In this document: positions 15,118 to 34,062 of the stretch, one piece after another
Layout of the letters: each line of letters begins with the position of its first letter
How positions within the stretch are numbered: position 1 is the first letter of the stretch
From: an uncultured bacterium
GTDB lineage: Bacteria > Omnitrophota > Omnitrophia > Omnitrophales > Abzuiibacteriaceae
Direction of reading: 5' to 3'
Assembly (NCBI GenBank): GCA_964387845.1
Contig: CAYLXA010000001.1
Span: 288,001-352,000, forward strand
DNA: 64,000 bases
The notes under the pieces: model-generated
The model's database searches: none
The model's input: the letters and a program-made list of their open reading frames with translations, nothing else
Told to the model about the DNA's origin: nothing
Made by a program: the position numbers and the translations under genes

Positions 15118-15212
15118 TTCCCTCTCCCTTTGGGAGAGGGCTAGGGTGAGGGATTTCTATAAATCCCACCACCCTCATCCTAACCTTCTCCCTCTAAAGA
15201 GGGAGAAGGGAT
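15118..15212. repeat. nested palindromic element, family ii (CCCTCTCCC-N3-GGGAGAGGG / GGGTGAGGG), copy A
   Basis: ccctctccctttgggagagggctagggtgaggg ... ccaccctcatcc ... cttctccctctaaagagggagaagg. It overlaps the 3' end of the PabC-like gene, whose C terminus reads PSPSLEGEG. Confidence 0.55.
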
Positions 15213-15989
15213 AAATCGTTTCATTAACCTGCTTGTTATAACGCCCGGAATTTCCGTGCCGATTTGACGGCCATCGAGCGACCGCACCGGCACGATGATA
15301 CCTGTTGAATTGGTTAAAAAGGCTTCATCCGCATTAAATACATCGTGACGCGTTAAGAAGGATTCTTCCGCCGAAATACCCAATTCGAGCGCATATTTTA
15401 ACACAAAACGGCGGACGACTCCATTCAGGATTCCGGCTGTGGGAGGCGTTTTCAACGCGCCTTCCTTCACCATGAAGAAGTTCCAGACTCCGGCCTCGCG
15501 TACATACCCGTCTGGCCCCAGATAAATCCGGTCAAACGAATCGGTACAATCTAAAAAAGCAAGCAGCCCATTGACCAGATCGCCTGATTTTGCTTCCGGC
15601 GGAACGCTGTTTGAGAGGTTGCGCCTCACAGCGGAAGTTTTAAGATCAACGCCTTCCCGATAAATCTTTTCGGGATAAGAGCGCACGGATACGATCGTGA
15701 AAATATTTTTCTCCGAAACAGCCAGACGAATTGAATGGTTTGGATTTTCTTTGGCGATTTCGGCAAGTTCTTTTTCAATCCGTTCACGTTCGGTGGGAAC
15801 TTCAATCCCTGAAGTTTTTGCGGATTCAAACAAACGGTCCAAATGTTCATTCAAATGCAGAATTTTACCGCTCCGGGATTGCATGGTTTCGAAAACGTTT
15901 AATCCAAGCTCCGCCGGCGATATTATAGGAAGCTCTGCCGGTTTTATCTGTTTTCCGTTGATAAAGAGAAGCATATCCGTAAGTGACAT
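15180..15989 (-). CDS. pabC: class IV (branched-chain / D-amino-acid type) aminotransferase-fold enzyme, probably aminodeoxychorismate lyase
   Basis: Fold-type IV PLP enzyme, 269 aa from ATG 15989 (the ORF track uses a TTG at 16007). pabB and folC in the same region support a PabC assignment. Confidence 0.55.
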   Translation of the reverse strand: MSLTDMLLFINGKQIKPAELPIISPAELGLNVFETMQSRSGKILHLNEHLDRLFESAKTSGIEVPTERERIEKELAEIAKENPNHSIRLAVSEKNIFTIVSVRSYPEKIYREGVDLKTSAVRRNLSNSVPPEAKSGDLVNGLLAFLDCTDSFDRIYLGPDGYVREAGVWNFFMVKEGALKTPPTAGILNGVVRRFVLKYALELGISAEESFLTRHDVFNADEAFLTNSTGIIVPVRSLDGRQIGTEIPGVITSRLMKRFIPSPSLEGEG

Positions 15990-16030
15990 GGGAAAAGTAT
16001 AAAGCAAAAAAACAGGGCTGACTATTCGGA

Positions 16031-19000: not shown

Positions 19001-22000
19001 GCGGATGATTAAATGGGCAAAACTTTCGCCATGCTCAGGTTTCGCCAAAACACTCCACTTTTGATAACTTCGCGCGGCCTTGAATTGTTCCCGGCCAAAC
19101 TGCGCCTTAATTTGCTCATTGGTGAGCCCTTCCCATTCGCCTTGAAAAATTTCTTTTGTATCGGGATCAATCATCACTTTCAGTTCAATTCCTAATTTTT
19201 CACGTACCAACCGGATAAATGGTTCTGCCGTATCCCGCACACGCCCAAGCGGATTAATGATCACCACAAACTGATCCGGATTTGCTGTGATTTGGTCTTT
19301 AAACTTTTCAAATAATTTTTCAGCGTCAGCTTGCGCTTGCACGCGCCCTTTTGGCGTCAACTGCGCGCCTTCGTTATCCATACCGCTTCCCTGAAACCTC
19401 TTTCTCCCTGTTCTTAGCCCTTCCGCAATGATGTGAGTTTCTCCGTGGCGGATAACGTAAAGATCCAGATCAAGCGCCGGTGGGAAATAAGGCTCTTTAT
19501 AAAAAAGCTGCCCGGTCGATTGATTGACCCAAAAACCCATTTGTTGCAATGTTTCGGAAACATTTTTTCGCAATTCCACCCTCGCCTTCATTAATAAATC
19601 CGGCTGTATTGCACTGGTCGGAACCACAAGTTTGCCGTTTTCCCAATAGACCAGCGCACTCAAAAACTGGAACATGACCGGATCATGTTTTCTCACAAAA
19701 TCAGGGTCAAGCCAGTAAAGAGACTGGGCTTCAAAGAAAAACTCTCGCGCAGAAACAATGCTGTATCGGCTCAAAAACTGCGTTTCAATTTCTTCTTGAG
19801 AATAATCAAGCACCTGCTTCTTTTTCCCAAATTGCCTTTCAAGTGCCTGCAGCCTAGTCTCATAAATCCGTTTTGCAATCTGATAAACTGCTGTTTTATC
19901 GTGTGGAATGTTCACAATAGAGAGTGGTAAATTTTTATTCGCAAAATGCTCTAAGCGCTCAAAGTTAATCGGCAGCGCATACTGATTATGCTCAACGAGC
20001 GTTTCCGCAAGTTCGTGAGTCAGGAGCCGTTCTAAATAAGTAAAGTCCTTATCCCTCACCTTCAAAAATTCATCGCTCACTGGCCCGTCATAGGAGATCG
20101 GATGATCGCCCGCATAAAGTGAAAGAAAGATCGATTTAACATTGGACAGCACAGGATGAAGGGAGTGATAGGTAACGCCTCCCAAATGATCTCCGTTGCG
20201 TCTTACGATAGAACGCGCAATAAATACTTGGGCATTGAGCATTTTAAAAAGCGGTGCAATTGCAATGCCGGCCCTATGGCTTTCAAGGAAATGATTGAGC
20301 TGGCCATATAACTTACGCGCTAATCTCCAGTCGGTTTCACTGTTTAATCCATGCAATACATCAGTCCGAATATGTGCAGAAGAGCCTTGTAGATAACCCA
20401 AAACAATTTGACGCAATTCCGCCCTTGCCCCCTTTGAAGAAACATTTTCATGATCCGCTGGGGCCGAGGGGCTTTCTTGTAGTTCTTGCAAAATTAATAT
20501 CACTTCGTCCGGAAGTCCTAATGCGCTTAAAGCATCCTTGGCGCTTTCGAGCTGATGAAAACTGAAATGATCCGCAAATCTTTCTGCGCGAGACTTATTT
20601 CCCAGCAACCCTGTCAAAAATGGGATAGCCAACTCACGAAAATGAATGCACCATGGCTCCGCTTGAAGAATCCGGTTGGTCAGATAAAGCAGTTTTTTAA
20701 GCTGTTTAAACGATAAATCGCTATCTTGAAGCGCGGCACGGATTGCGTCATGGCCTGCATCCAACAACATAGTCTTAGGGGCAGCACTTTCCGCTTCGGA
20801 ATTCCTGAGCTCGGAACGTATGGCTCTAGATTTAATAGCAACGCTGCCGAGATACACATTGCCGCTCTGGTGATAAAGAAGCGGGTTTTCGTGGCCATCC
20901 ATGCTGATAACGTCTCCATCCGCGATATCACGGCCGGCGATGAGCCAAAGATGCTTTTCCGGCTGGAACACCATGTCCGGAACGCCATAAACGGCCGAAA
21001 TGCCTTCTTTCTGCGCCAGCGTTTCCGCATGCACTGAAATGGTCTTCGCTAAAATATGAACCCCTTTTGGAATCCGGTTAATCATTTCGGGATTCACTCT
21101 GTCCAAGATCAAAATAACGCCGTCAACATCCGCTCGGGGATGAGAAACAAGTTCGCCCAAAAGCTTTTCCGCTGCTTCTATCGAATTAGCCGCCAAACCG
21201 CGAATCGCACCGCCGCTCACGCCATGGCCGCGCGCAATCGGCTGATTGTCAGTCGAGTCGGCAAATTCCGGATATTGATCCGTCACAAAATCATCATTGC
21301 TTTGGACAATCCATATCTTTCCGCGCTCAATCGTGAATTCAAACTGCTGGTTGTAACGGAAAATGTTCTTGAGCTTACGCGCGTACTCGAACACTTGTGC
21401 GTAAAGCTCCGGCTGCAATGCTTCAAATGTTTGTTCATCCGGCCGGATTCGCTCACCATTTCCGATTAAAATGTAATTTTGGCCGGCACGGCTCATCAAT
21501 TGATCGCCGATCGAGTGAAACCGAAATTTACCTTGGAGCACGTCATGGCCGTCCGGAAGTGTTCTCAAAACTGCGTGCCCCGCGCCTGAAATTTTCCCGT
21601 CATCAGTCGGCTTTAAATTTCCGAAAACGCCTTTCTGCAGAATAACGACCGTTCCCCACTCTTGCGAAATCTGATGCCGTGTACGATACGCGCGTGCCTC
21701 TTCGGAGTCCCACGATGCATAAACCGCTTCGACTGCCATCATGACCTGATCCATCATGTCGTTTGGAATTATTTTGCCGTGCCGCGCCACGATTGCTTTG
21801 CACTGTTCCACCACTGCCTTCATGCCGTCTGCCGACAAATCTTCCTTTTCTTTAACATTCAAAACCTGCTCAAATTCCGCCTCAGGAATACCGAGCACAT
21901 TGATCGAAAATGACCGGATAAATTCCGCGTAGGTGTCATACGCAAACCACGCATCGCCGCTTTTTTGGGCAAGCGCTTCGGCTTCCGCGTCGTTCATGCC

Positions 22001-25000
22001 CACATTCGACACAGTAGCCAAAAGGCCGGGCAGCATGAAAGCAGAACCGCTTCGCGCGTACAAAATAAGCTTGAGGTCGGGATACTCGGAGTAGCGTTTG
22101 AGCCGTTCGATTTCGGCTGCGATTTTTTGACGGAATTCGTCCGACCTGAAAATGTCGGGTTTCGTCACTAACTTGGCGCTCAAGATGACACCCGGCGGTA
22201 CGGGAATCCTCTCGTGCGTCATGCGGATCAAGTTCAGGCCCTTTTTGCTCCAAAGCGAGAGAAGTTCCGGCCGTTCATCCGTTTCATTTTCGCCAAACCG
22301 GTACAAATGTTGCTCGAAATCATCCGGCCTTTCCGCGCCGGCATCCTCACGGATGGCTTCGTCCTGGCCTTGCGAAAGCGCAGAAGCGAGAACAGCATCA
22401 AATTTCATGAGCGCGCGGTCAAATGCCGTCGCGCCGGAATTCCGGATCAGCTCATCAATCACCGCGGCTTCAAGTCTCTCTTTTCCTTCAGGCGGAAAGT
22501 CATAAATTTGATAAGTCTGATCATCCTCTGTTTTGGTTTTGATTTTAAAGAGGCTGGTATGTTCGCGCCATAATTTTGCCAGATCGTGATAACCAACTTC
22601 ATCCAAGCTGTATTGCATGGCCGCGCGCATGGTGTTATTTAGTTGCCGGGTAATTTTGTGGACTTCGGCCTCAAGCGTGTGGACCAAATCGTAGAGCTGC
22701 GACGCCTTAATGCTGCCCGAATCAAGCTCAACCATCAATTGATCAAAATCGACACCACCCAGCCCTGAAGCCTGAATAAACCGGCCGAGCGCAATGAGAT
22801 TGGGCAATTCGCGCCGCAAATCGTCTACAGAATTTATTTTTTCAATCTTTTCCTGGACGTGAGCAATCTTTTCCGAAGCTAAAATCGATAATTTCTCGCT
22901 CATTTCAACCAACGTGCGTAAATCATATAGATAATCACCTTCTTCATGCATATCGTTCCACTCCTGGTCTATATCATCCGCATCCTCATCGGCCGAATCT
23001 TCGCCGTCCCGCCCAATGCTCTTCTCTGCCTGTCCCAATACTTTTTTCTGATTTTCCTCTCCGGAAAGCAAAAACTCTTTAAGATCATTTTGCACTTTCA
23101 CGATGGCGGAGAAAATGGCCGCATGATCATCAGAATCGATCAACATAAGCAGCCGATCGTAATCCTCCCGCATAAACCGGGTAATGGCCGTCATTTTCTT
23201 TTTCAAGTACCCACCGTCACGCAGATCTTCAGTTTCTCCTTTTAAGAAAGGAACGATCGTCGCGACGCGAGTTCCGAAATGATCCGCAAAAGCCAAATAA
23301 AGTTGAGTCATTAATTGAACGCGTTCATAGTCAATCTCGGACACATCTTCATCCCGGTTCGCTTCTTCATAAATCGCGACTACTTCACGCTCCGGAATGT
23401 CCAGGATTTCATCCAGAAAAGCCTCCGGATCGCTTTTGCTGATTTTCCCTTTGGCCGCAAGCGCTTTGACAAAACGGTTCAAGAGTTTTGAATAAGTTTG
23501 AAGAGTCGCTGGATTGAAATCTTTTGTCATATCATCCCGCAGCAGAGTCCAGTTGCTTTCCTTTAAAATAGACTCATCAAGCGTCAACCAATAAGCAAGA
23601 ACTCTTCTCGTATTCTCAAAGTCACTTCTATTCAAGTTTCGATGAATACCGTCTCTAAAATGGCTGAACCATCCGCGGCCAAACTCGCCGGGATAAGAGG
23701 CATTATTATCAAGCCGTCTTGAATAGCTGATAATACGGTCCTGCGAATTATCCGTAGAGACGCCGCCCTTGCGTTCGGCTTCGATGACTTTCATTAAATA
23801 AAAATAGGCCGCTCGGGCGTTTGGTTGATGGAGCAAATACAAGGACATCTGCGGATACTCTATGCGCTTTCTGCCTTCGCTTGGAATATCACGCACAAGG
23901 CCTTGGGCTGCCACAAAAGCAGCGGCAAGCGGATCCGCCGGTGAAACGCTCAGCAAGATAGAAATCAGTTCCCTGAAAAATTCGTGGCCTATGGTTCGGA
24001 GGTGCAGCAGAAGGTGAATCAGTTTACCCAAGTCGTCAGGACTTGCTTGGCGGAAAGTTGCTTCTAAATCATGGTGGATATCAGCTTTGATGTAATGCTC
24101 ATTAAAGTAAGCGGCTGCCAACTCAAGAAAAATCCGGTTCTCTTCCGGCGAATTTGTTTTAGAGAGGTAAATCGGAATCAAATGCTCTTTAAAGAAAGCA
24201 TCCGTCATTCTATAGCGGTCGGGCGACATCGCGCTCGACACGTACCACAAGTAGCTCTGTTTCTTATCCAGCGGTAAATCTGCTTTTAAAATAAACTCGC
24301 GAATCAAATTCTGCAGATGCTCTTTAGAATTTTTTTTAAGTAGGTCGATAATCGCCTCTTTCCTCGCCCCGACGGCTTGATTTTGCTCAAACGACAGGTG
24401 CTTGCCGCCTCTTCCAAAACTTAGTTTCATGAGTGTTTGGTAATCGCGCAGCGCTTTTTCGAATTCTTTATAAGACATTGGGTTTGTACGACCGTCCGAC
24501 CTGAGCTCGGAACGTTTTTGGGCAGTAAGTGTTTTTAAATTCGGAAAAAGTGTGCGGAACGGTTCGCCGAAAAAGAGGCGGCGTCGGACAGCCTCTTTGC
24601 GGCGATGAATAAATGCGGCTTGAGTCGGAAAAATAAGATGCCTCGGCAGAGGAGCGTATTTTAAATAAACAGGAGCTGATGTATTGATACCAACATTTAA
24701 TTCCGGGTCTTGCAAATTCGGCAGCGGAAGCGTGAGCACCGCATCCCGCAGAGGATTTTTACTGCGGTCACCGATTGTGCGAATCAGCATGCTGGCTTGA
24801 ACCTCGCTTACATCCCACGGTGAACGGAATCCCAGCCGAACCCAGTCAGATTCATTACGCGATAAAACTTCCGCGACCAGTTTTTCTATTTTTTCATTCG
24901 AAATTTTTCGGCCCGTTTCAACACCGTTCTGATCCAGTTCGGGAACATCGGTCAGCATCCGGCTTAGATATTCCGTCATGGATTGTTTTCCGGTGCGGCG

Positions 25001-28000
25001 TTTTGTATCGTCCGGCCAAAATCTGGCGCCATACTTCAGTGAGAATATTTTTACGCCCAGATCTGTGGATCTGTAACCAAACTTCCAATCATGAACGTCT
25101 TGATCCAGCATGACCGATAAGGCCCATAGCATCAAATTTCGATACGTGAAACCCGGATAAGACTGCGAGAATTTTCGTGTAGACGGCGGTATATCGGCCA
25201 AACGTTCTTCGGGCCATGCCGATACAACACTAATGAACCGCTTGACATAATCGGCCAGCAGCTCGTTGTCCGAGGGTTTCTTGATTTCTTTCCCGTCAAA
25301 TTCCTCAATATGAAGACCGGTCGGACGCAGATGTATGACTTGCGTCAAGCCCAATGTCCAGTAAGCGTAAAATAAATCCTCTAAACCACCCGCAAGCAGA
25401 TGATCCAGACGGCCTGCAAATTTTTCAAATTCGTCCAGGTCTTTGAAATAGGGATCGATTAACGTTGCCAAAAATTGGTTGAGGTTGCCGAATTTCTTGT
25501 CAAGGCCCCGGTTTTCCCATTCCCGGCGCAATTCGACGCCGAGCTCGCGTAATTCCCTATTCGAAAATCCTTCGGGCAATACCTTGCTCCAATAAATGCG
25601 CCTGTCCTCTGAGCCGCTTCTGGGCCAAAACCGATTGGAGTCGTGCGGGCTCAATAGAAACGTCAGAGCTTCAAGGATATCGCCTTCCGTCAGACTGTCA
25701 TAAATCTTATTCGGAGAGCCCGCTTGATCCATCAAATCGCGAATCACATCCATAACTTGATCGACTTTTGAACGTTGGGTGACCGCGGCAGTTTGCCTAA
25801 GTTCCGAACGGTTTTTCAGAATTTGCCGCCGTTCTTCGAGCGTAAAAAATTGTTTTTCGTAAGCTCTTTTTGCGGCTTCCCGGATTTTTCTATTAAACCG
25901 GTCTAAATCAGTTATTTCCTTCTTTAAAAAATCAAGCCACTGTTTTGGTTCAATGGTCATTTCCCCGAAAAATTCGTCGCTCAAAAGCATCAACAGCTGC
26001 ACAAATGCGACTTTGTACAAAGGATCTTCCTGATCCAAGGCAGCCCGCATCGCATCTGATACCGGAAGTACCGGATTCAGATAAGGGAACAGGATTTGAG
26101 CCGGATAGGACGACCGGATTAATTCATTCAATTTAGCTTCTACTTCAAAGTAAGCATGGGCCAACAACCCCTGCTGATCGCCTTCATACCCGCCCAGCGC
26201 ATGAGCCAGCAAACTTCCGGGACGCAGGATAGCTTTCATCACATTAATCCAATAGAGCGATGTTGAGTAATCGTTTTCTCCCTTATAAAATTCGTTTGCA
26301 AACACATAGGCATCGGAATGGCTAAGTTCCTCCTCTAAAACTCCGCTCCGGTATAATTGTGCGACATACCCATAATCGCCCAAACTATAAAAATGCATTT
26401 GAATCCAATCTCGTAAGTAAGCGACGGGTGATTGATCAAAATTGGGAAATTGATACTGGCCCGTTTCATATAACTTTTTCAAATTTTGGTAATAATCAAA
26501 ATTTTCTATCGAAGGAACGTCGGTGCCTTCAATAATGACAATATGCCTGTCTTTCGCAAATGCACTTAGGTAACTGTCGCTCTTTCCGTCTCTCGATTTG
26601 AGGCGAACGGTGTAAACCGGAACAAACCGGCCTGCCGCAGAGCGCTGAGATTCCCTTTTGATAATTTTACCGACCAAGAGTCCGCTGCCGTTCACTATGT
26701 CCACGATCAGGCCACGTGGAATTAAAATATCGTCCGCGATTTTTGTTCCTATTTTTCCGATATCATAAATAGAAATCAAATCTTTGTGGCCAAATGAAAA
26801 AGCGGCATCAAAATCCGGTGAAAGAGGCCTGAGAACCTGGTTGAATGTTTCAACGGCCTCAAGACGGTTTAAGTCATTTAGACTGGCTTTTTCGACTAGG
26901 TACTTTAGCTTCGGCCAATAGCTCACCCAAAACCATTCCACAACATCAAAGCTGGGGCTATCCGGATTTAGGAGCCTAAACTCTCTGATTAAGTTGAGAA
27001 TTTGATTCGCCTGGCTGGTGTTGAGCGTGATCTTTCCGCGCAAAGCTTTGATAATGCCTTGCGCATTTAAATTTTGAGTTTCCAAAAATTCTTTCAGAAC
27101 ATCTACGGTAAAAAAGCGTTTAATATTTTTTACGCTTAATTTCGAAATGATGAGAGCATGCAGCGTTTGAACCGGATCCGTATTTACTGCTTGTGCCGTC
27201 TGATTGCGCAATTCAGAGCGGAGTAGCTCAGACTGCGGGGCAGCGGTTTGACCTTGCAACGGGATTTCCCAGAAATTGCGGGCGTTGCGGGCAGAATCGA
27301 AGAATGCTCTGGCTTTCGCACGGTTGCCTTTGGTTAACTCGAATAATCCAAAAATAATTGCGTAAGCTCTTTCCGTAAAGCTACGCGACTTTTTTAGCAC
27401 AAAGTCACGGGCCAGCCACCGGTAACGGAATGCGTCAAAATGATACTGAAAACCGGCTTCCGGATCGTGAATCTTTTTAATTGTATTGCGCGAGGCTCCC
27501 TGAGAGTAGTGCTGATCTAAATAATCGCGGCCGTAGTTGGTAATCCCTGCATAGATCTTCTTAAAGCCCGAACGCCGCGCGACATCTTGAAGAATCTGAA
27601 TCGCTTCCGGCATCAGTTCATCGAAATATTTTGCACCGTCATTGTTAAACTCGAAACTGTTGACCGTTAGTACCGGATCTCCATTGTCTTCCGATGCAAT
27701 CATCCACATCTGTGCCCGATGCTGATAGGCATCGCCTGAACCCTTGTGATCGATGTCCGCCAGGATAATTCCGTCGTCACTCAGGAGAGAGGGCAAAATC
27801 CAGGAGACAAAATGCTGCAGAGAAATACAATTTCCGATGGCTTCACTTGAAGTGAGAAAATCTATCGCGCCTTTCAGGGTCTTTTTGTCGTGAATTCTTA
27901 TTCGAATTCCCTTTTCTTTATTTTCGTAAACCCTGCCCTTCTCAAATTCAGAAACATTGATGCCGATTGCCTGCATTTTTTTCTCAATGGCTGAAACATG

Positions 28001-31000
28001 GCCTGTTTTGCGAAGTCTTTCTGACAAATAATCACGCAATCTTTTGTAATACAAAATTCCGGGCGCAATATTGAGCCGCGTGCTGATCAAAAAAGTTCCT
28101 GGCGCGATAATTCCCATCAAAATAAAAAACAAGGCAGCATTTGAAATGAGAGGATAAATGGTAAAAACGCCGAACCCGACCAGAAACGCGAAAGCGGTCG
28201 GCGCCACCCAAGCATAAATGGGCCTTGGCGGCTTTCTAAGGCCTTTCAAAATGCGTGGATTCATCGTGACAATGTCGAGAGCATCTGCAATGCTGATCCC
28301 GAGTGCGCGCCGCACTTTGGCAATTTCGGAAATTTTCATGCGGCTCAGGCGCGTGGCTTTCATAAATTTCTGAACCGCCATGAGTTTGTCAAAAGCGTCT
28401 TTTTTAAGACTGTCCCGCACCGCTTTGTCTTCGGAAAGCCTGCGCATAGCTTCTTGATTTGAGGCTGACCAGACTACGGCAATAACTTCTTCCGTTTTTT
28501 TCCGCTGGTCAGGCGAAAGTTTATCCAAAAACTTAAGCACATTGACGAGATCGCCGTCTTTAACGGACACGTTGTACAGAATTTCTTCAAAAAAGTACCG
28601 CAAATTCCGGTTTGGACTTGGAAAATATTCGAGCAACTTTTCAAGTTTCGCGATTGCGCGCGGAGGATAGCTCATTTTCTGCGCAACGGGATTTTCATTA
28701 ATTTCAGCGAGAATGGTTTCGATAAATTTTGGATATGCGCGGAGCTCGGATCGCTGCTCATCGGTTTTTTTTGCGATTGCCCTCCTTTCAGACTTATGCT
28801 GAAACCACCACATTCCTCCAAAAAGAAGCAGAAGCGGCGGGATCAAGGAAGCATTGTCCGTAAGCCAGGCAACGGGCCCGGTCACAACAAGAACAAGCGA
28901 GGCTGTAATTGCCTTAAGAAAATATTGTTTCCGGAACTTAAACCACCACGTTTTATACTGAGTCGGAAAAATCTTAACGCGGTTCGATGGTTGAATTAAA
29001 TCCGTTACATAACCAATCACTTCACCTTTTGGGAAAGCATACTCCAAAGGCTCGACCGGATACCCATAAACGTCTAAATATTGTTTTTGGGAAGGATCGG
29101 CATATTCGATCGATACAAGCTCGGGCTGTTTGCCGGATTTCTTAACATAATCGACAAGCCTCTTAGGCCCTTGATTGAGCGGATAAGCAAAATAAAGAAC
29201 TGATTTAAATCCGCATGCCCGGGCATAGTTCTCGATGATTTTTTGAATTCCCTTCGCCTTTGCATCAAAAATTCGCCCCTCCACACCGTCCACAAATAAA
29301 ATCGGCTGTTCTTTTCCGTCTTGATCCTTATAAATCGCGGCGGCGATTCTGGCCCGTACCCGGCGGCCTTCGCGCGTACGGAAATCAATCGCTGAAATAC
29401 TTTTGTTGTGCAAATAATTAAACGGGCCCAGCGCACCTTTTGTTCTCCGGTTTAATTTGTCAAGCCACGTGTTGCCGCGAAGCGACGCCGAAGAAAAGAA
29501 ATCCTTTTGATTGGTTAAATCAAACCACGGATCGCGCCGCCAAATCCGGGCTTCTACAATTGAGTCCGGTAAATTTCCCCAATCGTCAATCTTGGAGATA
29601 CTTTTCTGAAGGTATTGATTGGCCTTCGCGGCATTGGGGTTTACATATTGGCCCAGCTCTTGCAGCAACTTTTTTCCTTCCTCGACAGGCAATTCACCTC
29701 TTTTATTCCTGGCCAATTCTTCTTTGTGCGCATTGAAAAATTGAGTGACCGACTTCTTACCCTCCTTTAAATTGGGCGTGTACTGTCCGGGCTTAAACTG
29801 GCGGTCTTCGGTTGAACCCAAAAAATCCCTGAGTATTTTCTGGATAAACTCGGGGATGGTTTGATTTTCCGCGTCTTCGAATTCCCCTGCCGGTACTTTT
29901 TCAATATTATCCCCGCGAATTTGATAATAGACTTTGTAATCCGGATTATCCCAATTTTCGTTGATGCCGACCGATTTGAGACGCTCCATGGTTTGAATCG
30001 CTGCCTCGGTCTGGTCAAACCATTGCCGGTAACTTCGCCGCTTAAGCATGGAGGCCAGATCCAACGCGGAAATTGTTTTCCACGAAAAAATGAACATTCG
30101 TTTCGCAAATACCGCCAAAATGTAAACCAAGGCTGTGAAACCTGACGCCACAAACAAGCTTTCAATCCATCCTGCGGGATCAGAATTGTTGATCATTTCC
30201 CTAATATTTAAGCTTGCTAAATTTCCATCCATCCAAAAAGAAATAGCGGAATAGAAAATTGTGAGCGCTGCGCGTTGAACCGAAGCATAGAAATATCCAA
30301 TAACGCCAGTGAAGGAAACCGCGAGAAGATGCAGCCACGGGTTCTGAATGAGCGCCGTACGGGCGTGCGCAATCCGTGCGCGTTCTAATTTTTCTTCGTT
30401 AATTTTGTTCAAGTCAATCTTTAAACTTTTAAACTTTTTCCACAAAAATTTCAGCTCCGGGAAACCGTCTTTCTCCATCCGCTCGTCGATTTCGGCAATG
30501 GTGAGATCTGAATTCTCACGCAGTTCACTGGCTGCCTTTGGATTTTTGCTTTTTCCGTTTCCGGAAAAAGCGTTGCGCGTCAGAACACCGATCGTTTTAA
30601 ACACCAGCGCGGTGTTATAAAGTGCCGACCGGTCCCGGATATCGTTTAACTCCAGCTCTATGTCATGCGTGTCCATGCCAAACTTTCCGGTTCCGATACC
30701 CCGCTTTAGAGCGCTTGAGCTGAGAAAACCCGGCTTGGTGTGATGTAAAACACTTTCGATATAATTTTGATCAACTTCCAAAGGTAAGCGCGGCCTTGGC
30801 CCAAACCATTGCATGTCACCGCGGACAATCGACAAGAGCTGCGGAAGCTCATCAAGCCCCGTTCTGCGCAAAAACCATTCGTAAGGCGTAATGCTTTCAT
30901 CTGAAATGTTGAAATCAAGTTTCATGGTTTTAATTTTTCGTATCACAATCGTCTTGCCCTGAAAACCGATTCGCTCTTGAATAAAAAACATGGGGCCGCT

Positions 31001-33958
31001 TGTGATAATTTTCCGGATAAAGGCAAGCAAATAAACCAGCGGAAGAGTTAAAACCCACAAAACGAGCGCTGTGATTCTCCCTGCCGCCTCGGACAGATCA
31101 GGTTTCTTTGCCGCGGGAAGCGATAAAGCATTGGTTTCCTTCAAGCGCAATTCCGAGCGCGCTTTATCGATGTCGTTCGATTGAGAAGCCGAAGTCGGTA
31201 TTTCTCCGGTTGGGTGATTGCTGCTTACCGCATTTGCTTTTCCTTTTGAATGCAAATAAAAGGTGCCGACGGCGGATGTTAAATGTCCCAATCCGGCCAG
31301 AAGCACAACCTCGTTTGAATCTTTTCTGGATCCAAGATACGCGGTTTCTGCCATAAAAGATCCTCTGTCTTTTGCTTTGTCGTTGGGATGTGTCAAATAA
31401 TCAGGGGCGAATAACTGGTGCGACTCGATAGATTTCAACCATTTGGTAAAAAGCAGAATGAGAGAAACCACAAGAAACCACGGTGCAAAAAATGCAGCTA
31501 TTAAACTATCCCGAAGCGAATCCCCATGATCAAATATTTCACTGCCAACCTGCAATTTGTAAAGCAGGCGAAAATTTCGCTCGTGAAAAAATGGGATGCC
31601 TTCTCTCGCTAAGAAATAAGATAACTCCCGTACTTTTTTCTTGTTTAGCAGCATAAATTCAGAACCATGCACAATGCCAATCACATGAAAAGTACGCCCG
31701 CCGATTTTGACCATCTTACCGGAAAAACCAAAGCGTTCCGCAATCGGCGAATCTTGAAATTGCGCCATGGTTTCAGAAGCCGCCTTTCGCCAAATTGGAG
31801 TAGCGAAGTCTGAAAATACTCGGCGGTGATAACCGATATTTTTGCCTAAAAGACCGGCTTTTTTAAATTTCTGAAACAATTCGATGGGTTTTGATGATTC
31901 AATCATCCAAGTTCCGATAGTCCTTTCTGAAATTTTTAATTCACCCGCTCGATCCCAAAATTGTTTCTCAGACGGGTAACGTAAAACATTGATCAATAGC
32001 GGGAGGATAAACTTTTGAACAAAATCAGCGTAGGTAAAATTGAAACTTAAGAGAACCACATTCGCCAAAAGCCACGTGATAAAAATACTAATGGGAAAGC
32101 CAAACCGTGAAAGACTTAGCTGCATAAGTGCCTGTTTAATGCTTGATAAAAAATGAGCTGCGAGTGGATAGGTTTTGGGGAATAGAAGCATTAAAATCAA
32201 GGATCCCGACATTGCGGCTATCCCGTAAAATAAAAATGGAATAGCTTTCATCCCGATTTTTAATAGATGCTTCCGCTTTGCATCCGGGCTCCCGTTCTTG
32301 AGTCTAGATTCAGCATGAATGACATCCCCGGTTACCCGCAATTCCGACCGAGGCGCGGTTGGCGACAAGTGCAATTCCGAGCGCGGCTCTGCGCTTGCGG
32401 CAAACTCGTCAGGAATGACCGGCGATTCCAATAAGATATCCGATACATAATCGGCAGCAGTGCGGCGAACAACCGGGTCGGAATCACCAGCAGCAATAGC
32501 CATAACGGAAACAGCGCGCCAGTCGTGGTGGCGCGTTTGGTACAAGTAATCAAGTAAATTCAGAAGTTTGATTTTAAATTTTTGGAGATGCGGGTTTGGG
32601 GTGCTTGATCCCGATTGAAGTTCCAGAGCTTCTGAAAATGTGGCAAACAAAATATCGGGCGATACTTCATACAAAGAAAATTTTGAGTCGTAAGCCAGCA
32701 AATGTTCAATTCGGTCGATGATTGCAAAATTTCCACTTTGATATGCATTATAGAAATTGATCATGATTTGGCCCGCAACAATTCGCTGAACTAATTTTGA
32801 AACTTCCCCGCCCGTTACTTTAAAATAATATTTTTTTCTGGCTTTGAGCCCATCCAATTCGAATAACTCCCGCAGATTTTCTTCCACTTCCCTCTTGATT
32901 CTTTCAAATTCTATCCTTTTTTCAGAAAGAACATCTTCGAGCGGTTTTTGAGCGGCTTCCAAATTTTCCGTGGCTGGTATTTTCAGCTTTGGTTCTTTTT
33001 GGCCGGGCTGAGTAGAAAACTGAGAACACCCGACCGAAGCTAGTCCGATTAAAGAGAACAACTGAATCAATTTCAATATTTTGAATGCGCGCAGCTCTGA
33101 GGATTGAGATATTTTTGTGTAAACTTGAAAACTGGAGGAGCTATCCGGATGGATCTTGACTGTAACGCGTGAAAAATCGGGAGATGAAAAATAAGGCATC
33201 AATTCATGCTCAACGCCATAGTTGACCAATTTTCCGCCGGCTTTGAGATTTCTTTTGATCGTACTGGCTAGCCGCGCACGATTAGCTGTGCCATAACTAT
33301 AATAATAGACAATATCAGCTTGCTGCAAAAGCGCGGTCCAGCGCGTGTCATTAAAATCTCCGCGCAAAAATTCTACTTGGCCTTTTTTGATAATCCCGCG
33401 CTCCTCGGCCACAGAAAGTAACCGGAGACTGTCTGCGTAGAGATCCGGATCATATTCGATGCCGGTGATTTTTAAATTCGGATAACGGTGAGCAAGCATC
33501 AATGCATAAGCGCCCTGGCCATGGCCCAAGTCCACCATGGTAACCGGCTGGTCATGCGGGATCGGAAATTTTTCGACCGTTGCATTTATCGAATCAAGCC
33601 GGGTCTGTAGGTGAACGCCTTTTTCCGTGCGCCGGAGCTGAGCTGAGCTAAAATCAACTCCGGAATTTCGGAACAAAAGGCCGAGCACTTCCCTTGGATC
33701 CCTGGCCAATTCGACTGCTCGCAATTCCGAGCGCGGCTGAGTGTTTAATTTAACTGTGCCGCGGGCGATGGTGGGTAAATCCAGATCCAGAATACCGCCA
33801 TGCTGATTGGCTAAGCGATGGACTCCGACGGTGGTGAAATTATTTTTGAAGGATTCCGCGATCACAGACGAATCGCCGTAAGCGATCGTGCTGGTAACTG
33901 AAAAGGTAAGGACAAGTGTCAGAGCAACACTTTTTAAAAGATATGAGTTTAACTTCAC
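16031..33958 (-). CDS. giant 5975-aa composite ORF, possibly a polyprotein: signal peptide, SAM-MTase, lipoprotein, tentatively TraB/GumN-like membrane module, PglC-type phosphoglycosyl transferase, several unknown membrane/soluble modules, PPDK-like dikinase, histidine phosphatase, HPr-like domain and HEAT-like module, separated by about 21 R-S-E-L-R motifs
   Basis: A single uninterrupted reading frame starts at ATG 33958 (MKLNSYLLKSVALTLVLTFSVTSTIAYG, signal-peptide-like) and ends at TAA 16031. Domain calls come from motifs read directly in the translation, listed under the sub-features below. Confidence 0.7.
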   Translation of the reverse strand: MKLNSYLLKSVALTLVLTFSVTSTIAYGDSSVIAESFKNNFTTVGVHRLANQHGGILDLDLPTIARGTVKLNTQPRSELRAVELARDPREVLGLLFRNSGVDFSSAQLRRTEKGVHLQTRLDSINATVEKFPIPHDQPVTMVDLGHGQGAYALMLAHRYPNLKITGIEYDPDLYADSLRLLSVAEERGIIKKGQVEFLRGDFNDTRWTALLQQADIVYYYSYGTANRARLASTIKRNLKAGGKLVNYGVEHELMPYFSSPDFSRVTVKIHPDSSSSFQVYTKISQSSELRAFKILKLIQLFSLIGLASVGCSQFSTQPGQKEPKLKIPATENLEAAQKPLEDVLSEKRIEFERIKREVEENLRELFELDGLKARKKYYFKVTGGEVSKLVQRIVAGQIMINFYNAYQSGNFAIIDRIEHLLAYDSKFSLYEVSPDILFATFSEALELQSGSSTPNPHLQKFKIKLLNLLDYLYQTRHHDWRAVSVMAIAAGDSDPVVRRTAADYVSDILLESPVIPDEFAASAEPRSELHLSPTAPRSELRVTGDVIHAESRLKNGSPDAKRKHLLKIGMKAIPFLFYGIAAMSGSLILMLLFPKTYPLAAHFLSSIKQALMQLSLSRFGFPISIFITWLLANVVLLSFNFTYADFVQKFILPLLINVLRYPSEKQFWDRAGELKISERTIGTWMIESSKPIELFQKFKKAGLLGKNIGYHRRVFSDFATPIWRKAASETMAQFQDSPIAERFGFSGKMVKIGGRTFHVIGIVHGSEFMLLNKKKVRELSYFLAREGIPFFHERNFRLLYKLQVGSEIFDHGDSLRDSLIAAFFAPWFLVVSLILLFTKWLKSIESHQLFAPDYLTHPNDKAKDRGSFMAETAYLGSRKDSNEVVLLAGLGHLTSAVGTFYLHSKGKANAVSSNHPTGEIPTSASQSNDIDKARSELRLKETNALSLPAAKKPDLSEAAGRITALVLWVLTLPLVYLLAFIRKIITSGPMFFIQERIGFQGKTIVIRKIKTMKLDFNISDESITPYEWFLRRTGLDELPQLLSIVRGDMQWFGPRPRLPLEVDQNYIESVLHHTKPGFLSSSALKRGIGTGKFGMDTHDIELELNDIRDRSALYNTALVFKTIGVLTRNAFSGNGKSKNPKAASELRENSDLTIAEIDERMEKDGFPELKFLWKKFKSLKIDLNKINEEKLERARIAHARTALIQNPWLHLLAVSFTGVIGYFYASVQRAALTIFYSAISFWMDGNLASLNIREMINNSDPAGWIESLFVASGFTALVYILAVFAKRMFIFSWKTISALDLASMLKRRSYRQWFDQTEAAIQTMERLKSVGINENWDNPDYKVYYQIRGDNIEKVPAGEFEDAENQTIPEFIQKILRDFLGSTEDRQFKPGQYTPNLKEGKKSVTQFFNAHKEELARNKRGELPVEEGKKLLQELGQYVNPNAAKANQYLQKSISKIDDWGNLPDSIVEARIWRRDPWFDLTNQKDFFSSASLRGNTWLDKLNRRTKGALGPFNYLHNKSISAIDFRTREGRRVRARIAAAIYKDQDGKEQPILFVDGVEGRIFDAKAKGIQKIIENYARACGFKSVLYFAYPLNQGPKRLVDYVKKSGKQPELVSIEYADPSQKQYLDVYGYPVEPLEYAFPKGEVIGYVTDLIQPSNRVKIFPTQYKTWWFKFRKQYFLKAITASLVLVVTGPVAWLTDNASLIPPLLLLFGGMWWFQHKSERRAIAKKTDEQRSELRAYPKFIETILAEINENPVAQKMSYPPRAIAKLEKLLEYFPSPNRNLRYFFEEILYNVSVKDGDLVNVLKFLDKLSPDQRKKTEEVIAVVWSASNQEAMRRLSEDKAVRDSLKKDAFDKLMAVQKFMKATRLSRMKISEIAKVRRALGISIADALDIVTMNPRILKGLRKPPRPIYAWVAPTAFAFLVGFGVFTIYPLISNAALFFILMGIIAPGTFLISTRLNIAPGILYYKRLRDYLSERLRKTGHVSAIEKKMQAIGINVSEFEKGRVYENKEKGIRIRIHDKKTLKGAIDFLTSSEAIGNCISLQHFVSWILPSLLSDDGIILADIDHKGSGDAYQHRAQMWMIASEDNGDPVLTVNSFEFNNDGAKYFDELMPEAIQILQDVARRSGFKKIYAGITNYGRDYLDQHYSQGASRNTIKKIHDPEAGFQYHFDAFRYRWLARDFVLKKSRSFTERAYAIIFGLFELTKGNRAKARAFFDSARNARNFWEIPLQGQTAAPQSELLRSELRNQTAQAVNTDPVQTLHALIISKLSVKNIKRFFTVDVLKEFLETQNLNAQGIIKALRGKITLNTSQANQILNLIREFRLLNPDSPSFDVVEWFWVSYWPKLKYLVEKASLNDLNRLEAVETFNQVLRPLSPDFDAAFSFGHKDLISIYDIGKIGTKIADDILIPRGLIVDIVNGSGLLVGKIIKRESQRSAAGRFVPVYTVRLKSRDGKSDSYLSAFAKDRHIVIIEGTDVPSIENFDYYQNLKKLYETGQYQFPNFDQSPVAYLRDWIQMHFYSLGDYGYVAQLYRSGVLEEELSHSDAYVFANEFYKGENDYSTSLYWINVMKAILRPGSLLAHALGGYEGDQQGLLAHAYFEVEAKLNELIRSSYPAQILFPYLNPVLPVSDAMRAALDQEDPLYKVAFVQLLMLLSDEFFGEMTIEPKQWLDFLKKEITDLDRFNRKIREAAKRAYEKQFFTLEERRQILKNRSELRQTAAVTQRSKVDQVMDVIRDLMDQAGSPNKIYDSLTEGDILEALTFLLSPHDSNRFWPRSGSEDRRIYWSKVLPEGFSNRELRELGVELRREWENRGLDKKFGNLNQFLATLIDPYFKDLDEFEKFAGRLDHLLAGGLEDLFYAYWTLGLTQVIHLRPTGLHIEEFDGKEIKKPSDNELLADYVKRFISVVSAWPEERLADIPPSTRKFSQSYPGFTYRNLMLWALSVMLDQDVHDWKFGYRSTDLGVKIFSLKYGARFWPDDTKRRTGKQSMTEYLSRMLTDVPELDQNGVETGRKISNEKIEKLVAEVLSRNESDWVRLGFRSPWDVSEVQASMLIRTIGDRSKNPLRDAVLTLPLPNLQDPELNVGINTSAPVYLKYAPLPRHLIFPTQAAFIHRRKEAVRRRLFFGEPFRTLFPNLKTLTAQKRSELRSDGRTNPMSYKEFEKALRDYQTLMKLSFGRGGKHLSFEQNQAVGARKEAIIDLLKKNSKEHLQNLIREFILKADLPLDKKQSYLWYVSSAMSPDRYRMTDAFFKEHLIPIYLSKTNSPEENRIFLELAAAYFNEHYIKADIHHDLEATFRQASPDDLGKLIHLLLHLRTIGHEFFRELISILLSVSPADPLAAAFVAAQGLVRDIPSEGRKRIEYPQMSLYLLHQPNARAAYFYLMKVIEAERKGGVSTDNSQDRIISYSRRLDNNASYPGEFGRGWFSHFRDGIHRNLNRSDFENTRRVLAYWLTLDESILKESNWTLLRDDMTKDFNPATLQTYSKLLNRFVKALAAKGKISKSDPEAFLDEILDIPEREVVAIYEEANRDEDVSEIDYERVQLMTQLYLAFADHFGTRVATIVPFLKGETEDLRDGGYLKKKMTAITRFMREDYDRLLMLIDSDDHAAIFSAIVKVQNDLKEFLLSGEENQKKVLGQAEKSIGRDGEDSADEDADDIDQEWNDMHEEGDYLYDLRTLVEMSEKLSILASEKIAHVQEKIEKINSVDDLRRELPNLIALGRFIQASGLGGVDFDQLMVELDSGSIKASQLYDLVHTLEAEVHKITRQLNNTMRAAMQYSLDEVGYHDLAKLWREHTSLFKIKTKTEDDQTYQIYDFPPEGKERLEAAVIDELIRNSGATAFDRALMKFDAVLASALSQGQDEAIREDAGAERPDDFEQHLYRFGENETDERPELLSLWSKKGLNLIRMTHERIPVPPGVILSAKLVTKPDIFRSDEFRQKIAAEIERLKRYSEYPDLKLILYARSGSAFMLPGLLATVSNVGMNDAEAEALAQKSGDAWFAYDTYAEFIRSFSINVLGIPEAEFEQVLNVKEKEDLSADGMKAVVEQCKAIVARHGKIIPNDMMDQVMMAVEAVYASWDSEEARAYRTRHQISQEWGTVVILQKGVFGNLKPTDDGKISGAGHAVLRTLPDGHDVLQGKFRFHSIGDQLMSRAGQNYILIGNGERIRPDEQTFEALQPELYAQVFEYARKLKNIFRYNQQFEFTIERGKIWIVQSNDDFVTDQYPEFADSTDNQPIARGHGVSGGAIRGLAANSIEAAEKLLGELVSHPRADVDGVILILDRVNPEMINRIPKGVHILAKTISVHAETLAQKEGISAVYGVPDMVFQPEKHLWLIAGRDIADGDVISMDGHENPLLYHQSGNVYLGSVAIKSRAIRSELRNSEAESAAPKTMLLDAGHDAIRAALQDSDLSFKQLKKLLYLTNRILQAEPWCIHFRELAIPFLTGLLGNKSRAERFADHFSFHQLESAKDALSALGLPDEVILILQELQESPSAPADHENVSSKGARAELRQIVLGYLQGSSAHIRTDVLHGLNSETDWRLARKLYGQLNHFLESHRAGIAIAPLFKMLNAQVFIARSIVRRNGDHLGGVTYHSLHPVLSNVKSIFLSLYAGDHPISYDGPVSDEFLKVRDKDFTYLERLLTHELAETLVEHNQYALPINFERLEHFANKNLPLSIVNIPHDKTAVYQIAKRIYETRLQALERQFGKKKQVLDYSQEEIETQFLSRYSIVSAREFFFEAQSLYWLDPDFVRKHDPVMFQFLSALVYWENGKLVVPTSAIQPDLLMKARVELRKNVSETLQQMGFWVNQSTGQLFYKEPYFPPALDLDLYVIRHGETHIIAEGLRTGRKRFQGSGMDNEGAQLTPKGRVQAQADAEKLFEKFKDQITANPDQFVVIINPLGRVRDTAEPFIRLVREKLGIELKVMIDPDTKEIFQGEWEGLTNEQIKAQFGREQFKAARSYQKWSVLAKPEHGESFAHLIIRAAAFWKRMNEQYRGKTVILFNHAAFSGALQVLKKDMRVVHPEGHIDWRRAGLKTGEITHFTDDYFRAQRAEVLRRDEAHQVHGVRGKNISNEVGTRPTHVYRRWEGWIPVPPKSEQPPREKSGVRSELRNDLENEEPIELPFAVDQSHHSTDLARLEVELHNAELAGDLDTIEEVTARIQAVRAARRGPFQSFPRPPKHRSELRNYTVIGISAGAIGIGVGALLYYSLIKPRRIALDEQQLRIKILLSRTEVLLNRFSSFILSVSDRGNSLAAEANDYYLRILPELRKAKSALKGMKEEHGLLLKEEEEWLAQTSQAIDSYEAFLDHQINEYKKSVTPTDRNMSELREGESNSIEINVTVKNRQGVHASPAMFIVEMAQAALAKNVSVKIKNLNKGSAEWIEADNPMALMTLEAVKDTRLAFQFEFKTDEERISAERFAVAFHELVEVRLFGEDGGELGGSEAFVDEMFKISETELAERFQKLTEPMPGPDAGSQKSELRSVQKLLRNLSHPNFTIRKTRADELGKGNEVGLETLLQYLAEPVIPVDEWKPLIEVAPKNFNPDMLRQSARFAALYVLNWWIERDTGFYIPVLKAVLNQEKSSWTAQSETDINRIYEQNSSNPLGANQPLSLIQIMKLFRRWYSELQMKNRSLTLSENERRSFRHAKYIHRAVRILEEIADREVPVIDAQFYEQAGVKSLTSEHRNFTIAQKTIGSRYDVSIHLEGEINKELLPESLQKIKPIDFQSAIEKSILNQADAFNNTEIGDKVQSEVLGLPLIMAKVQSEVSGETVFNFRVIAKTEKTIAKGRVEVKENPLFRDLQTEIAPVARSEMRRIVSNARSFDNQIVTALQNRSEMREGKVFTRNAFFGEKGSLAVVGRNLSDVYGSYMVIVTNRAELRVIDEINATIANPKNRIVPVEDYHKARAELRNLGLSMAIIGVSDDAVAVPFLEKIADKVIIWNQAFVDHVLSAAAYLVGKFRAQMQVFYSA
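17701..17950 (-). other. HPr-like phosphocarrier domain
   Basis: IEINVTVKNRQGVHASPAMFIVEMAQ resembles the HPr active site GLHTRPA (the His-15 region). NPMALMTLEAVKDTRLAFQFE resembles the HPr Ser-46 region. Bounded by MSELR and KSELR. Confidence 0.5.
18622..19573 (-). other. histidine phosphatase (phosphoglycerate-mutase-like, branch 1) module
   Basis: LYVIRHGETHIIAEG (the RHG catalytic motif), verified on the DNA at about 19440-19470. Bounded by KARVELR and VRSELR. Confidence 0.6.
20810..22274 (-). other. pyruvate-phosphate-dikinase / PEP-synthase-like ATP-grasp nucleotide-binding domain plus phosphohistidine swivel domain; no PEP-binding TIM barrel found
   Basis: KKGLNLIRMTHERIPVPPGVILSAK and YARSGSAFMLPGLLATVSNVGMND match the PPDK_N motifs GGKGANL...PVPPGF and VRSSAxxEDMPGMMDTVLNLGLND. 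KTISVHAETLAQKEGISAVYG matches the PEP-utilizer mobile-domain phosphohistidine motif. GTNDL was not found. Confidence 0.65.
30526..31150 (-). other. PglC/WbaP-type polyprenyl-phosphate phosphoglycosyl transferase (Bac_transf) module, aa ~937-1144
   Basis: N-terminal re-entrant helix ITALVLWVLTLPLVYLLAFIRK and the signature LRRTGLDELPQLLSIVRGDMQWFGPRPRLP. The roughly 200-aa size equals a free-standing PglC. Flanked by ARSELR and AASELR. Confidence 0.75.
31162..32340 (-). other. polytopic membrane module with a TraB/GumN-like motif (tentative), aa ~540-932 of the giant ORF
   Basis: GGRTFHVIGIVHGSEF resembles the TraB/GumN/Tiki G-T-x-H motif. Several TM segments. Bounded by RSELR on both sides. 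Confidence 0.3.
33103..33721 (-). other. class I SAM-dependent methyltransferase module of the giant ORF (aa ~80-285)
   Basis: VDLGHGQGAYALMLAHRYPNLKITGIEYDP (motif I plus an acidic residue at the end of beta2) and ADIVYYY. Bounded by PRSELR upstream and SSELR downstream. Confidence 0.6.
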
Positions 33959-34062
33959 AGTTTGAGCGAGCTGCCTTTCAAAATCGGGAATGGATAGATA
34001 ATATCACAGATAAACTGATTTTCAAGTATAAGAGGGTTTTAATATAAAATAAGAAGATATAT

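Follow-up and report, generated by a model that had tools for sequence, protein, structure and literature searches.

A giant open reading frame (ORF) of 5,975 codons without a stop, found in DNA of an uncultured Omnitrophota bacterium, strings together about 20 unrelated modules split by motifs of the type R[SA]E[LVM]R, and directly behind several of these motifs lie sequences that look like N-terminal targeting signals. The ORF occupies positions 16031-33958 of the minus strand of a 64,000-nucleotide stretch (GenBank assembly GCA_964387845.1, contig CAYLXA010000001.1, positions 288,001 to 352,000; hereafter the window). The same arrangement of motif and signal recurs in 36 related giant ORFs. 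We consider it most likely, with a probability of roughly 0.55, that the ORF encodes an operon-like polyprotein that is cut at the junction motifs and whose pieces are then targeted separately.

Targeting signals behind the junction motifs

The giant ORF contains 14 exact copies of SELR, against 0.21 expected from its composition, and about eight close variants (SEMR, AELR, VELR and SELH); of the longer pattern R[SA]E[LVM]R there are 15 copies, with 0.05 expected. SELR was found in no other real ORF of the window. From copy to copy the motif is spelled with different codons, with every one of the six for Ser in use and most of those for Arg and Leu (TTG, CTG, CTC, CTT and TTA for Leu), and this synonymous variation indicates that the constraint acts on the peptide and not on DNA or RNA. 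We therefore rejected a DNA or RNA repeat as the origin of the motif, only four or five copies of which share DNA. Four copies within the first 940 residues (at about 33720-33737, 32370-32387, 32337-32354 and 31146-31163) have near-identical DNA, CGC TCG GAA TTG CG, with similarity reaching 29 nt, and the remaining copies differ in codons. The near-identity of these four suggests recent duplication or recombination at the junctions.

The features on which the following paragraphs draw, all on the minus strand of the window, are:

16031..33958, minus: giant ORF, about 20 unrelated modules split by R[SA]E[LVM]R-type motifs (translation, motif and family searches)
33026..33088, minus: lipoprotein-type signal peptide AFKILKLIQLFSLIGLASVGC, residues 291-311, directly after SSELR (lipobox rule match)
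30518..31144, minus: small PglC-type phosphoglycosyl transferase module, residues 939-1147, ending in ASELR at 30518-30532 (Pfam Bac_transf)
30998..31087, minus: hydrophobic helix of the PglC module, residues 958-987 (hydrophobicity)
18389..18406, minus: junction motif HRSELR, residues 5185-5190 (motif scan)
18314..18385, minus: transmembrane (TM) anchor YTVIGISAGAIGIGVGALLYYSLI, residues 5192-5215, beginning at +2 after HRSELR, with KPRR behind it

Three of these segments had been singled out in an initial annotation of the window as fresh N-terminal signals. The first, a lipoprotein signal said to follow SSELR at about residue 290, is present. Immediately after this motif (residues 286-290) the chain reads AFKILKLIQLFSLIGLASVGC and then SQFSTQPGQKEPK, with the mature part starting SQFSTQ after the Cys. 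We applied a lipoprotein rule of the PROSITE PS51257 type, which calls for K or R in the first seven residues, an uncharged core and a lipobox Cys at position 15-35. Counted from A291, Lys occupies positions 3 and 6, the six positions before the box are uncharged (LIQLFSLIGLA-SVG-C) and the Cys falls at position 21. Residues 291-311 are the sole match to the rule in 5,975 amino acids (aa), and a lipobox match 15-35 aa after a motif position appeared in 26 of 20,000 shuffles. The lipobox residue itself, Cys311, is one of just five Cys in the ORF. In the translated chain this segment is not N-terminal, as it lies 290 aa inside the giant ORF; it would become so by cleavage at SSELR or by a start at the TTG codon of L295. 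This in-frame TTG (window 33076), four codons after SSELR, would begin the sequence MKLIQLFSLIGLASVGC, an ideal 17-aa lipoprotein signal. It could be a site of internal initiation, or else a start codon left over from a gene that once stood alone.

The second segment, a TM anchor behind HRSELR, also proved to be present, with the motif ending at residue 5190 and not at 5188 as first stated. The anchor, 24 aa long from +2 onward and with KPRR behind it, is the lone hydrophobic segment between residue 3351 and the C-terminus. Over the giant ORF as a whole, the 11 hydrophobic segments include two that begin no more than 5 aa behind a motif (P = 0.012) and four that begin no more than 40 aa behind one (P = 0.03).

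The third segment was a PglC-type re-entrant helix placed after ARSELR at residue 937. Here a complete PglC module was indeed found behind the motif: its 209 aa match Pfam Bac_transf (PF02397) with E = 2e-29, scoring 102.7 bits where the gathering cut-off is 27, and the match runs from module residue 24 to 188 and spans positions 7-177 of the 179 in the profile. The module also contains ITALVLWVLTLPLVYLLAFIRK and GLDELPQ, which, read by eye, resemble two traits of the family, an N-terminal hydrophobic helix that has a Pro in its middle and basic residues behind it, and an Asp-Glu pair of the catalytic domain. The motif ends at residue 938, however, and the helix starts about 20 aa after it and not directly. 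The re-entrant helix of phosphoglycosyl transferases enters the membrane from the cytoplasmic face and works also behind other domains in larger enzymes. PglC-like matches start far inside other ORFs as well, at residues 857, 503, 3333 and 241 of the giants L002, L004, L005 and L007, and at residues 287-368 of ordinary 468-557-aa ORFs (L012, L014 and L016). Because the helix tolerates preceding domains and starts at +20, the PglC case lends no support to the argument that a free N-terminus is needed. Two of the three quoted examples are thus good evidence, and the PglC example is weak evidence.

Signals, motifs and boundaries in related giant ORFs

A search with residues 1-4797 returned just four distant proteins, of 3,395-7,365 aa, each with an N-terminal signal peptide and a common domain of about 520 aa. 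One of them (P0004) carries 12 copies of RSELR and another (P0002) carries RSE[VM]R, and a third (P0003) has a different recurring motif, [GAS][AS]SLG. A profile of the ~520-aa domain matched 9,539 cluster representatives at 50% identity, and the best 150 of these were mostly 1,000-7,700 aa long. Those relatives or cluster members that have source names come from Candidatus Omnitrophota or Elusimicrobia metagenome-assembled genomes. From the domain matches we took the 36 proteins with at least four copies of an R-class or G-class motif for the family tests below. The conserved motif cores are R-[SA]-E-[LVM]-R (191 sites) and [AG]-[ASQ]-S-L-G (145 sites), and the flanks of both are unconserved. 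A third class, [ET]N[AS][AS]VL, has ten copies in L005 (JAKLFA010000005.1, Candidatus Omnitrophota RA.bin146), an ORF no shorter than 6,813 aa, where it leads into a PglC module and two textbook twin-arginine translocation (Tat) signals. Motif class tracks the N-terminal domain tree; in its third branch, which is without R or G motif, a recurring motif was sought and none was found.

The placement of signals after motifs holds throughout this set. Of the 73 hydrophobic segments beyond residue 60, 27 begin no more than 40 aa behind a motif, against 6.2 +/- 2.3 expected, and none of 2000 permutations reached 27; within 20 aa the count is 14 against 3.1 expected. Before a motif there is no such excess, with no segment within 20 aa (3.1 expected) and four within 40 aa (6.2 expected). 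Sec signals with an AxA site can follow the motif directly, as in rselr followed by LLRRAVFAAFTAAVMTMLAFFSSAEA and then QPKKK; a further Sec example is rselr followed by ISKRKILIGVSLALLL. Internal lipobox signals occur in five proteins, the giant ORF among them. The observation that sequences like targeting signals follow several motifs, made on the giant ORF, is confirmed and extends to its relatives.

Tat signals provide the sharpest case. A scan blind to the motifs detected 13 internal twin-arginine signals, nine of them within 50 aa after a motif, in windows amounting to 4.7% of the sequence (P = 7e-10). These include aaslgM followed by DRRDFIKLAGAAAG, aaaslgM followed by DRRTFVKTCMAG, and srselrGNM followed by DRRKFLKVAG; in L005, NRRGFLKSLAV begins at +21 after nsavl, and SRRQMLKGLVLAGMALPFMTSRAYA, followed by DEP, at +10 after naavl. 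Tat substrates are folded in the cytoplasm and exported post-translationally by way of an N-terminal signal, and internal Tat signals therefore call for release of the module that carries them.

The residue directly after the motif is also biased. Leu, Phe, Trp and Tyr are depleted at +1 (nine of 164 against 32 expected, and four of 140 against 27.5 expected), with the minimum of the profile exactly at this position, and small residues are enriched there across the family. We infer from this bias a scissile bond directly after the motif, with either a P1' preference or avoidance of N-degrons behind it. Met is enriched three-fold at +1 (9/164), which is consistent with relic start codons of once-separate genes, and Met is absent from this position at about 95% of R-class junctions.

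Modules common to these proteins retain their boundaries from one motif class to another. The methyltransferase module lies 17 and 46 aa from its flanking motifs in the giant ORF, 12 and 51 aa in P0004, and 13 and 47 aa in P0030. The bounds of the PglC module are RSELR in the giant ORF, AASLG in P0003 and, at either end, NAAVL in L005, and the C-terminal bound of the PPDK-like module is RSELR in the giant ORF and RSEVR in P0002.

In most family members the N-terminal domain resembles the Tiki/TraB/ChaN/erythromycin-esterase superfamily (AlphaFold2 (AF2) model with a mean predicted local distance difference test score (pLDDT) of 77), and an alignment of four sequences leaves Q84, D85, H87, E115, G116, R469, G493, G494 and H496 invariant. 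Pfam gave only a faint ChaN match (E = 0.06). The domain differs from the Tiki/TraB superfamily in a helical insertion of about 300 aa and in having its own Sec-type signal, and is a candidate protease only. A six-frame hmmsearch of the window found no copy of it. Despite the absent domain, the giant ORF works like these family proteins, judging by the same motif, the shared modules and boundaries, the depletion of Cys and the C-terminal Ala.

Modules, composition and surroundings of the giant ORF

Cutting the giant ORF at its motifs gives 22 pieces of 11-1232 aa, with a median of 210. The modules that belong to a recognisable family look complete (SAM (S-adenosylmethionine) methyltransferase, PglC-type transferase, PPDK_N/ATP-grasp, histidine phosphatase and HPr). 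Besides the features given above, we located the following:

33998..34025, minus: best sigma-70-like promoter match, TTGAAA-16-TATTAT with TG, 10 of 12 matches, just upstream of the ORF start
33875..33958, minus: N-terminal Sec-type signal of the giant ORF, VKLNSYLLKSVALTLVLTFSVTSTIAYG followed by DSS; hydrophobic segment at residues 7-25, A-x-G site read by eye
33719..33736, minus: junction motif PRSELR, residues 75-80 (motif scan)
33089..33718, minus: SAM methyltransferase module, residues 81-290, ending in SSELR at 33089-33103, residues 286-290 (Methyltransf_25, E = 2.7e-9)
32387..33025, minus: lipoprotein-like module body, residues 312-524, an orphan (no Pfam or NCBIfam match or homologues)
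32336..32386, minus: double junction PRSELH-LSPTA-PRSELR, residues 525-541, with DNA nearly identical to the copies at residues 75-80 and 933-938
31145..32335, minus: orphan membrane module, residues 542-938, ending in ARSELR at 31145-31162, with TM segments at residues 572-594 (+31), 618-643 and 816-841
20804..24499, minus: 1,232-aa module with a PPDK_N (ATP-grasp) domain, ending in IRSELR (family match)
17501..17959, minus: HPr (phosphocarrier) module, residues 5334-5486, starting 7 aa after MSELR (PTS-HPr, E = 1e-9)

Searches for homologues of the lipoprotein-like module (residues 291-530) and of the membrane module (residues 542-938) gave no matches, and neither did Pfam, NCBIfam or the sequences of the PDB. 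Residues 542-938 were also considered as a TraB/Tiki-like protease on the strength of motifs read by eye (IGIVHG, RGSFMAE and AGLGHL), and every test of this idea failed: hhalign of the family N-terminal domain against the segment gave a non-significant probability of 0.2%, and a single-sequence AF2 model (pLDDT 45) was unusable. Some inter-motif pieces are very short, at 11, 24, 42 and 30 aa (window 32336-32368 and 16214-16501, the latter residues 5820-5915), and P0004 has comparable pieces of 95 and 32 aa; these may be spacer peptides or small products.

The giant ORF is nearly free of Cys: the five in its 5,975 aa amount to 0.08%, where the remaining 34 ORFs of the window have 1.14% (P = 3e-23), and the depletion affects all its modules, cytoplasmic-type enzymes included. 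Relatives are also poor in Cys, with one in 3,395 aa, four in 4,445 and none in 7,376 (relatives P0002-P0005 and P0013-P0161). The cause may be that these proteins encounter an oxidising compartment or are exported unfolded. Elsewhere in the window, an ordinary lipoprotein candidate on the minus strand at 62997-63779 (MNQKASIFVSFAVLSLVLSVTSC followed by KYDEE) is unusually Cys-rich, with 17 Cys in 260 aa. The giant ORF ends in ..FYSA (window 16034-16045), and 102 of 154 family proteins likewise end in Ala ('AA' in 43, 'SA' in 25 and 'QA' in 10), which may serve the family as a recognition signal or degron. Homology between the C-terminal tail of the giant ORF and the family tail did not rise above shuffled controls.

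Around the giant ORF lie ordinary chromosomal genes, including those for an anthranilate/aminodeoxychorismate synthase-like protein, a class IV aminotransferase, PurH, a FolC-like ligase and MnmE, and further ones for class II ribonucleotide reductase, PEP (phosphoenolpyruvate) carboxylase, succinate dehydrogenase and cytochrome c biogenesis. The ORF is flanked (window 15180-16007 and 34085-35578) by a PabB/TrpE-like gene for a chorismate-binding protein and a PabC/IlvE-like gene for a class IV aminotransferase. PurH and the FolC-like ligase follow downstream, and the whole gives the impression of a folate-related cluster into which the giant ORF was inserted. An exact look-up of the aminotransferase-like neighbour, and another of P0004, matched no record. 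The 3' end of the giant ORF and the genes downstream of it are also present in an independent assembly (Logan contig SRR15237813_36021). A genetic-code artefact was rejected as the cause of the giant ORF, all three stop codons being absent from the frame for 18 kb. Internal promoters and terminators were likewise rejected: promoter-like sites inside the ORF number 24 against 22.4 expected and terminator-like sites 23 against 24.7, counts at chance level.

Proposed processing of the chain, its alternatives and known counterparts

On the favoured reading, about 20 unrelated proteins would be translated as one chain, among them enzymes of the cytoplasm, membrane proteins, a single lipoprotein precursor and a single protein anchored by its N-terminus. 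The chain would be cut at R-[S/A]-E-[L/V/M]-R in unconserved linkers, most likely directly after the last Arg, and the released pieces would act as ordinary proteins. Those that have no signal would stay in the cytoplasm, the piece from A291 would be exported and lipidated at Cys311, and the piece from N5191 would be inserted by way of its N-terminal anchor. The protease would probably act in trans. The initial annotation had proposed polyprotein processing, or alternatively internal translation starts, on the ground that internal signals only make sense if new N-termini arise. This interpretation is borne out in part: processing gains from the enrichment of signals, the conserved boundaries and the depletion at +1. 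The underlying argument holds for Tat signals, which occur in the relatives only, and largely for lipoproteins. Flavivirus polyproteins use internal signal sequences co-translationally, and for this reason the claim is too strong for TM anchors.

Several observations weigh against processing. Cleavage itself, the exact scissile bond and the cytoplasmic site of the cut are points that we infer, and domain-family searches identified no protease in the giant ORF or the window; nor was a conserved protease gene seen beside the relative P0003. The Tiki/TraB-like candidate domain, with its own secretion signal, fits poorly with a cytoplasmic cut. The statistics within the giant ORF are modest (P = 0.01-0.03), though real. 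The -3 residue of the lipobox is Ser, which is outside the strict [LVI] consensus and within the PROSITE pattern; the box of the lone ordinary lipoprotein candidate of the window (SVTSC, at 62997-63779) is equally loose, and by that example the genome appears to use loose lipoboxes. Under the bacterial N-end rule, the post-motif residue L939 would be destabilising. The lipoprotein-like and membrane modules are orphans without detectable homologues. A close orthologue of the giant ORF was not found, a scan of GTDB genomes giving relatives of the PglC module only and two Joint Genome Institute (JGI) metagenome scans giving nothing.

The alternative that survives best, though we think it unlikely, is a single uncleaved multi-pass membrane protein in which the post-motif segments are start- and stop-transfer helices and the motifs are linkers or docking sites. 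Neither TM anchors nor the PglC helix strictly need a free N-terminus, and the failure to find a protease fits. Nielsen & Lui (10.64898/2026.06.07.730766) predicted single-chain TM or signal-peptide-plus-TM topologies for 94% of 916 long proteins, in a model that suppressed internal signal-peptide calls as chunking artefacts. The topology of an uncleaved chain is disfavoured because cytoplasmic-type modules would fall outside the cytoplasm. In an intact chain the SAM methyltransferase would be extracytoplasmic, between the N-terminal signal (residues 7-25) and the next hydrophobic segment (residues 291-312), an impossible placement; equally impossible, the ATP-grasp and histidine-phosphatase modules would lie on the opposite side of the membrane from HPr, with one TM segment (residues 5192-5215) between them, so that either HPr or the ATP-grasp module would be outside. 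An uncleaved chain also leaves unexplained the Tat, AxA-type and lipobox signals right after motifs, the asymmetry between positions after and before motifs, and the depletion of Leu, Phe, Trp and Tyr at +1.

It is more doubtful that the signals are undecayed relics of genes fused into one ORF, in which the motif replaced stop, spacer and start and nothing is cut or exported separately. The enrichment of Met at +1, the Met directly before several Tat motifs and the TTG at L295 would all suit such an origin, as would the four motif copies with near-identical DNA, which suggest recent junction formation. Against it, the arrangement holds across deeply diverged proteins and three motif classes, and the motif core is under tight amino-acid selection while its synonymous codons are free. 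Non-functional hydrophobic signals in a soluble chain should moreover be purged, and the lipobox Cys survives in an ORF nearly cleared of Cys.

We regard as improbable that the modules are made by internal translation initiation on the long mRNA, with initiator residues as the new N-termini; of the two mechanisms first proposed, this one is poorly supported in general and conceivable for the lipoprotein segment, where the TTG at window 33076 (L295) would yield MKLIQLFSLIGLASVGC. Many of the motif copies spell Leu with TTG or CTG, the SEMR variants have ATG at this place, and since Shine-Dalgarno-like sites are rare in this genome (10 of 35 genes), their absence is uninformative. Yet the Leu codons also include CTC, CTT and TTA, about 95% of R-class junctions are without Met at +1, and a start codon preceded by a Shine-Dalgarno-like site is missing within 40 aa of most junctions. 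Internal initiation explains neither a five-residue motif constrained at the peptide level nor an 18-kb stop-free frame, and every upstream module would still drag along all downstream sequence. Least probable by far is co-translational separation without a protease, by 2A-like peptide-bond skipping or stop-free termination and re-initiation: a peptide-level signal at the junctions and the missing protease would agree with it, but the conserved core has only five residues with unconserved upstream flanks, and three unrelated motif classes would each need skipping activity. The 2A elements known so far require about 18 residues ending in NPG|P and are active on eukaryotic ribosomes only.

Beyond the processing of this one chain, we tentatively suggest, at somewhat less than even odds, a widespread bacterial strategy in which operons' worth of unrelated proteins are made as one chain and cut at lineage-specific motifs by a co-evolving protease. 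The motifs proposed for this role are RSELR, [AG][ASQ]SLG and N[AS][AS]VL, and the chains would bring together enzymes of the cytoplasm, regulators, membrane proteins and lipoproteins with substrates of Sec and Tat. A candidate for the protease is the Tiki/TraB-like domain found at the start of most family ORFs. Modules would be shuffled between polyproteins as motif-bounded cassettes, and the internal signal peptides would serve the proteins, once released, as working address labels.

Omnitrophota giants resemble the giant ORF in being multi-kiloresidue ORFs that mix methyltransferase, kinase, response-regulator, sugar-metabolism and TM content. Cleavage of these giants was raised as speculation by West-Roberts et al. 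(2023; 10.1101/2023.11.21.568195), who invoked C39 and S8 domains and had no information on cleavage points. Nielsen & Lui (2026; 10.64898/2026.06.07.730766) treat multi-enzyme giants as single chains with internal signal-peptide calls suppressed, and the strings 'cleav', 'motif' and 'linker' do not occur in their text. We found the junction motifs and the signals that follow them described in neither preprint. A literature search likewise found no description of such junction motifs or of bacterial polyproteins of this kind, RSELR appearing only as an alginate-lyase PL7 motif and within 'varSelRF'. Whether Omnitrophota-like giant proteins stay single or are cut is an explicit question, the 2023 preprint giving cleavage points as unknown and the 2026 preprint modelling single chains. 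The motifs and signals make this question testable, as they give candidate cleavage sites and predicted N-termini of the products, including a lipidated CSQFSTQ peptide. For annotation and structure prediction, the motifs also offer points at which such ORFs can be divided into modules. If the favoured reading is true, polyprotein processing would be a cellular mode of gene expression that replaces operon structure, and would no longer be viral only.

One close likeness is to viral polyproteins, above all those of flaviviruses and pestiviruses, in which one ORF yields many proteins, the linkers contain short cleavage motifs that recur and are basic at P1 and small at P1', hydrophobic signal or anchor sequences stand right downstream of cytosolic cleavage sites, and the pieces reach different compartments. 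Unlike those polyproteins, the giant ORF is chromosomal, bacterial and set among housekeeping genes; its modules are metabolic, signalling and envelope proteins, and an encoded protease was not recognised. Flaviviral signals act co-translationally, whereas relatives of the giant ORF carry Tat signals that need post-translational release. Among bacteria, staphylococcal Atl and Porphyromonas gingipain/HagA give rise to several mature proteins from one ORF by endoproteolysis at recurring basic sites. There, two to five related extracellular pieces are produced after export of the whole precursor, in contrast to the ~20 unrelated modules here, which would be destined for cytoplasm, membrane and periplasm. 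Cyanobactin precursors of the PatE type, which belong to the ribosomally synthesized and post-translationally modified peptides (RiPPs), hold cassettes between short conserved protease recognition sequences, with variable content and fixed flanks; their cassettes are peptides of 6-8 residues without targeting signals, whereas the modules of the giant ORF are whole proteins.

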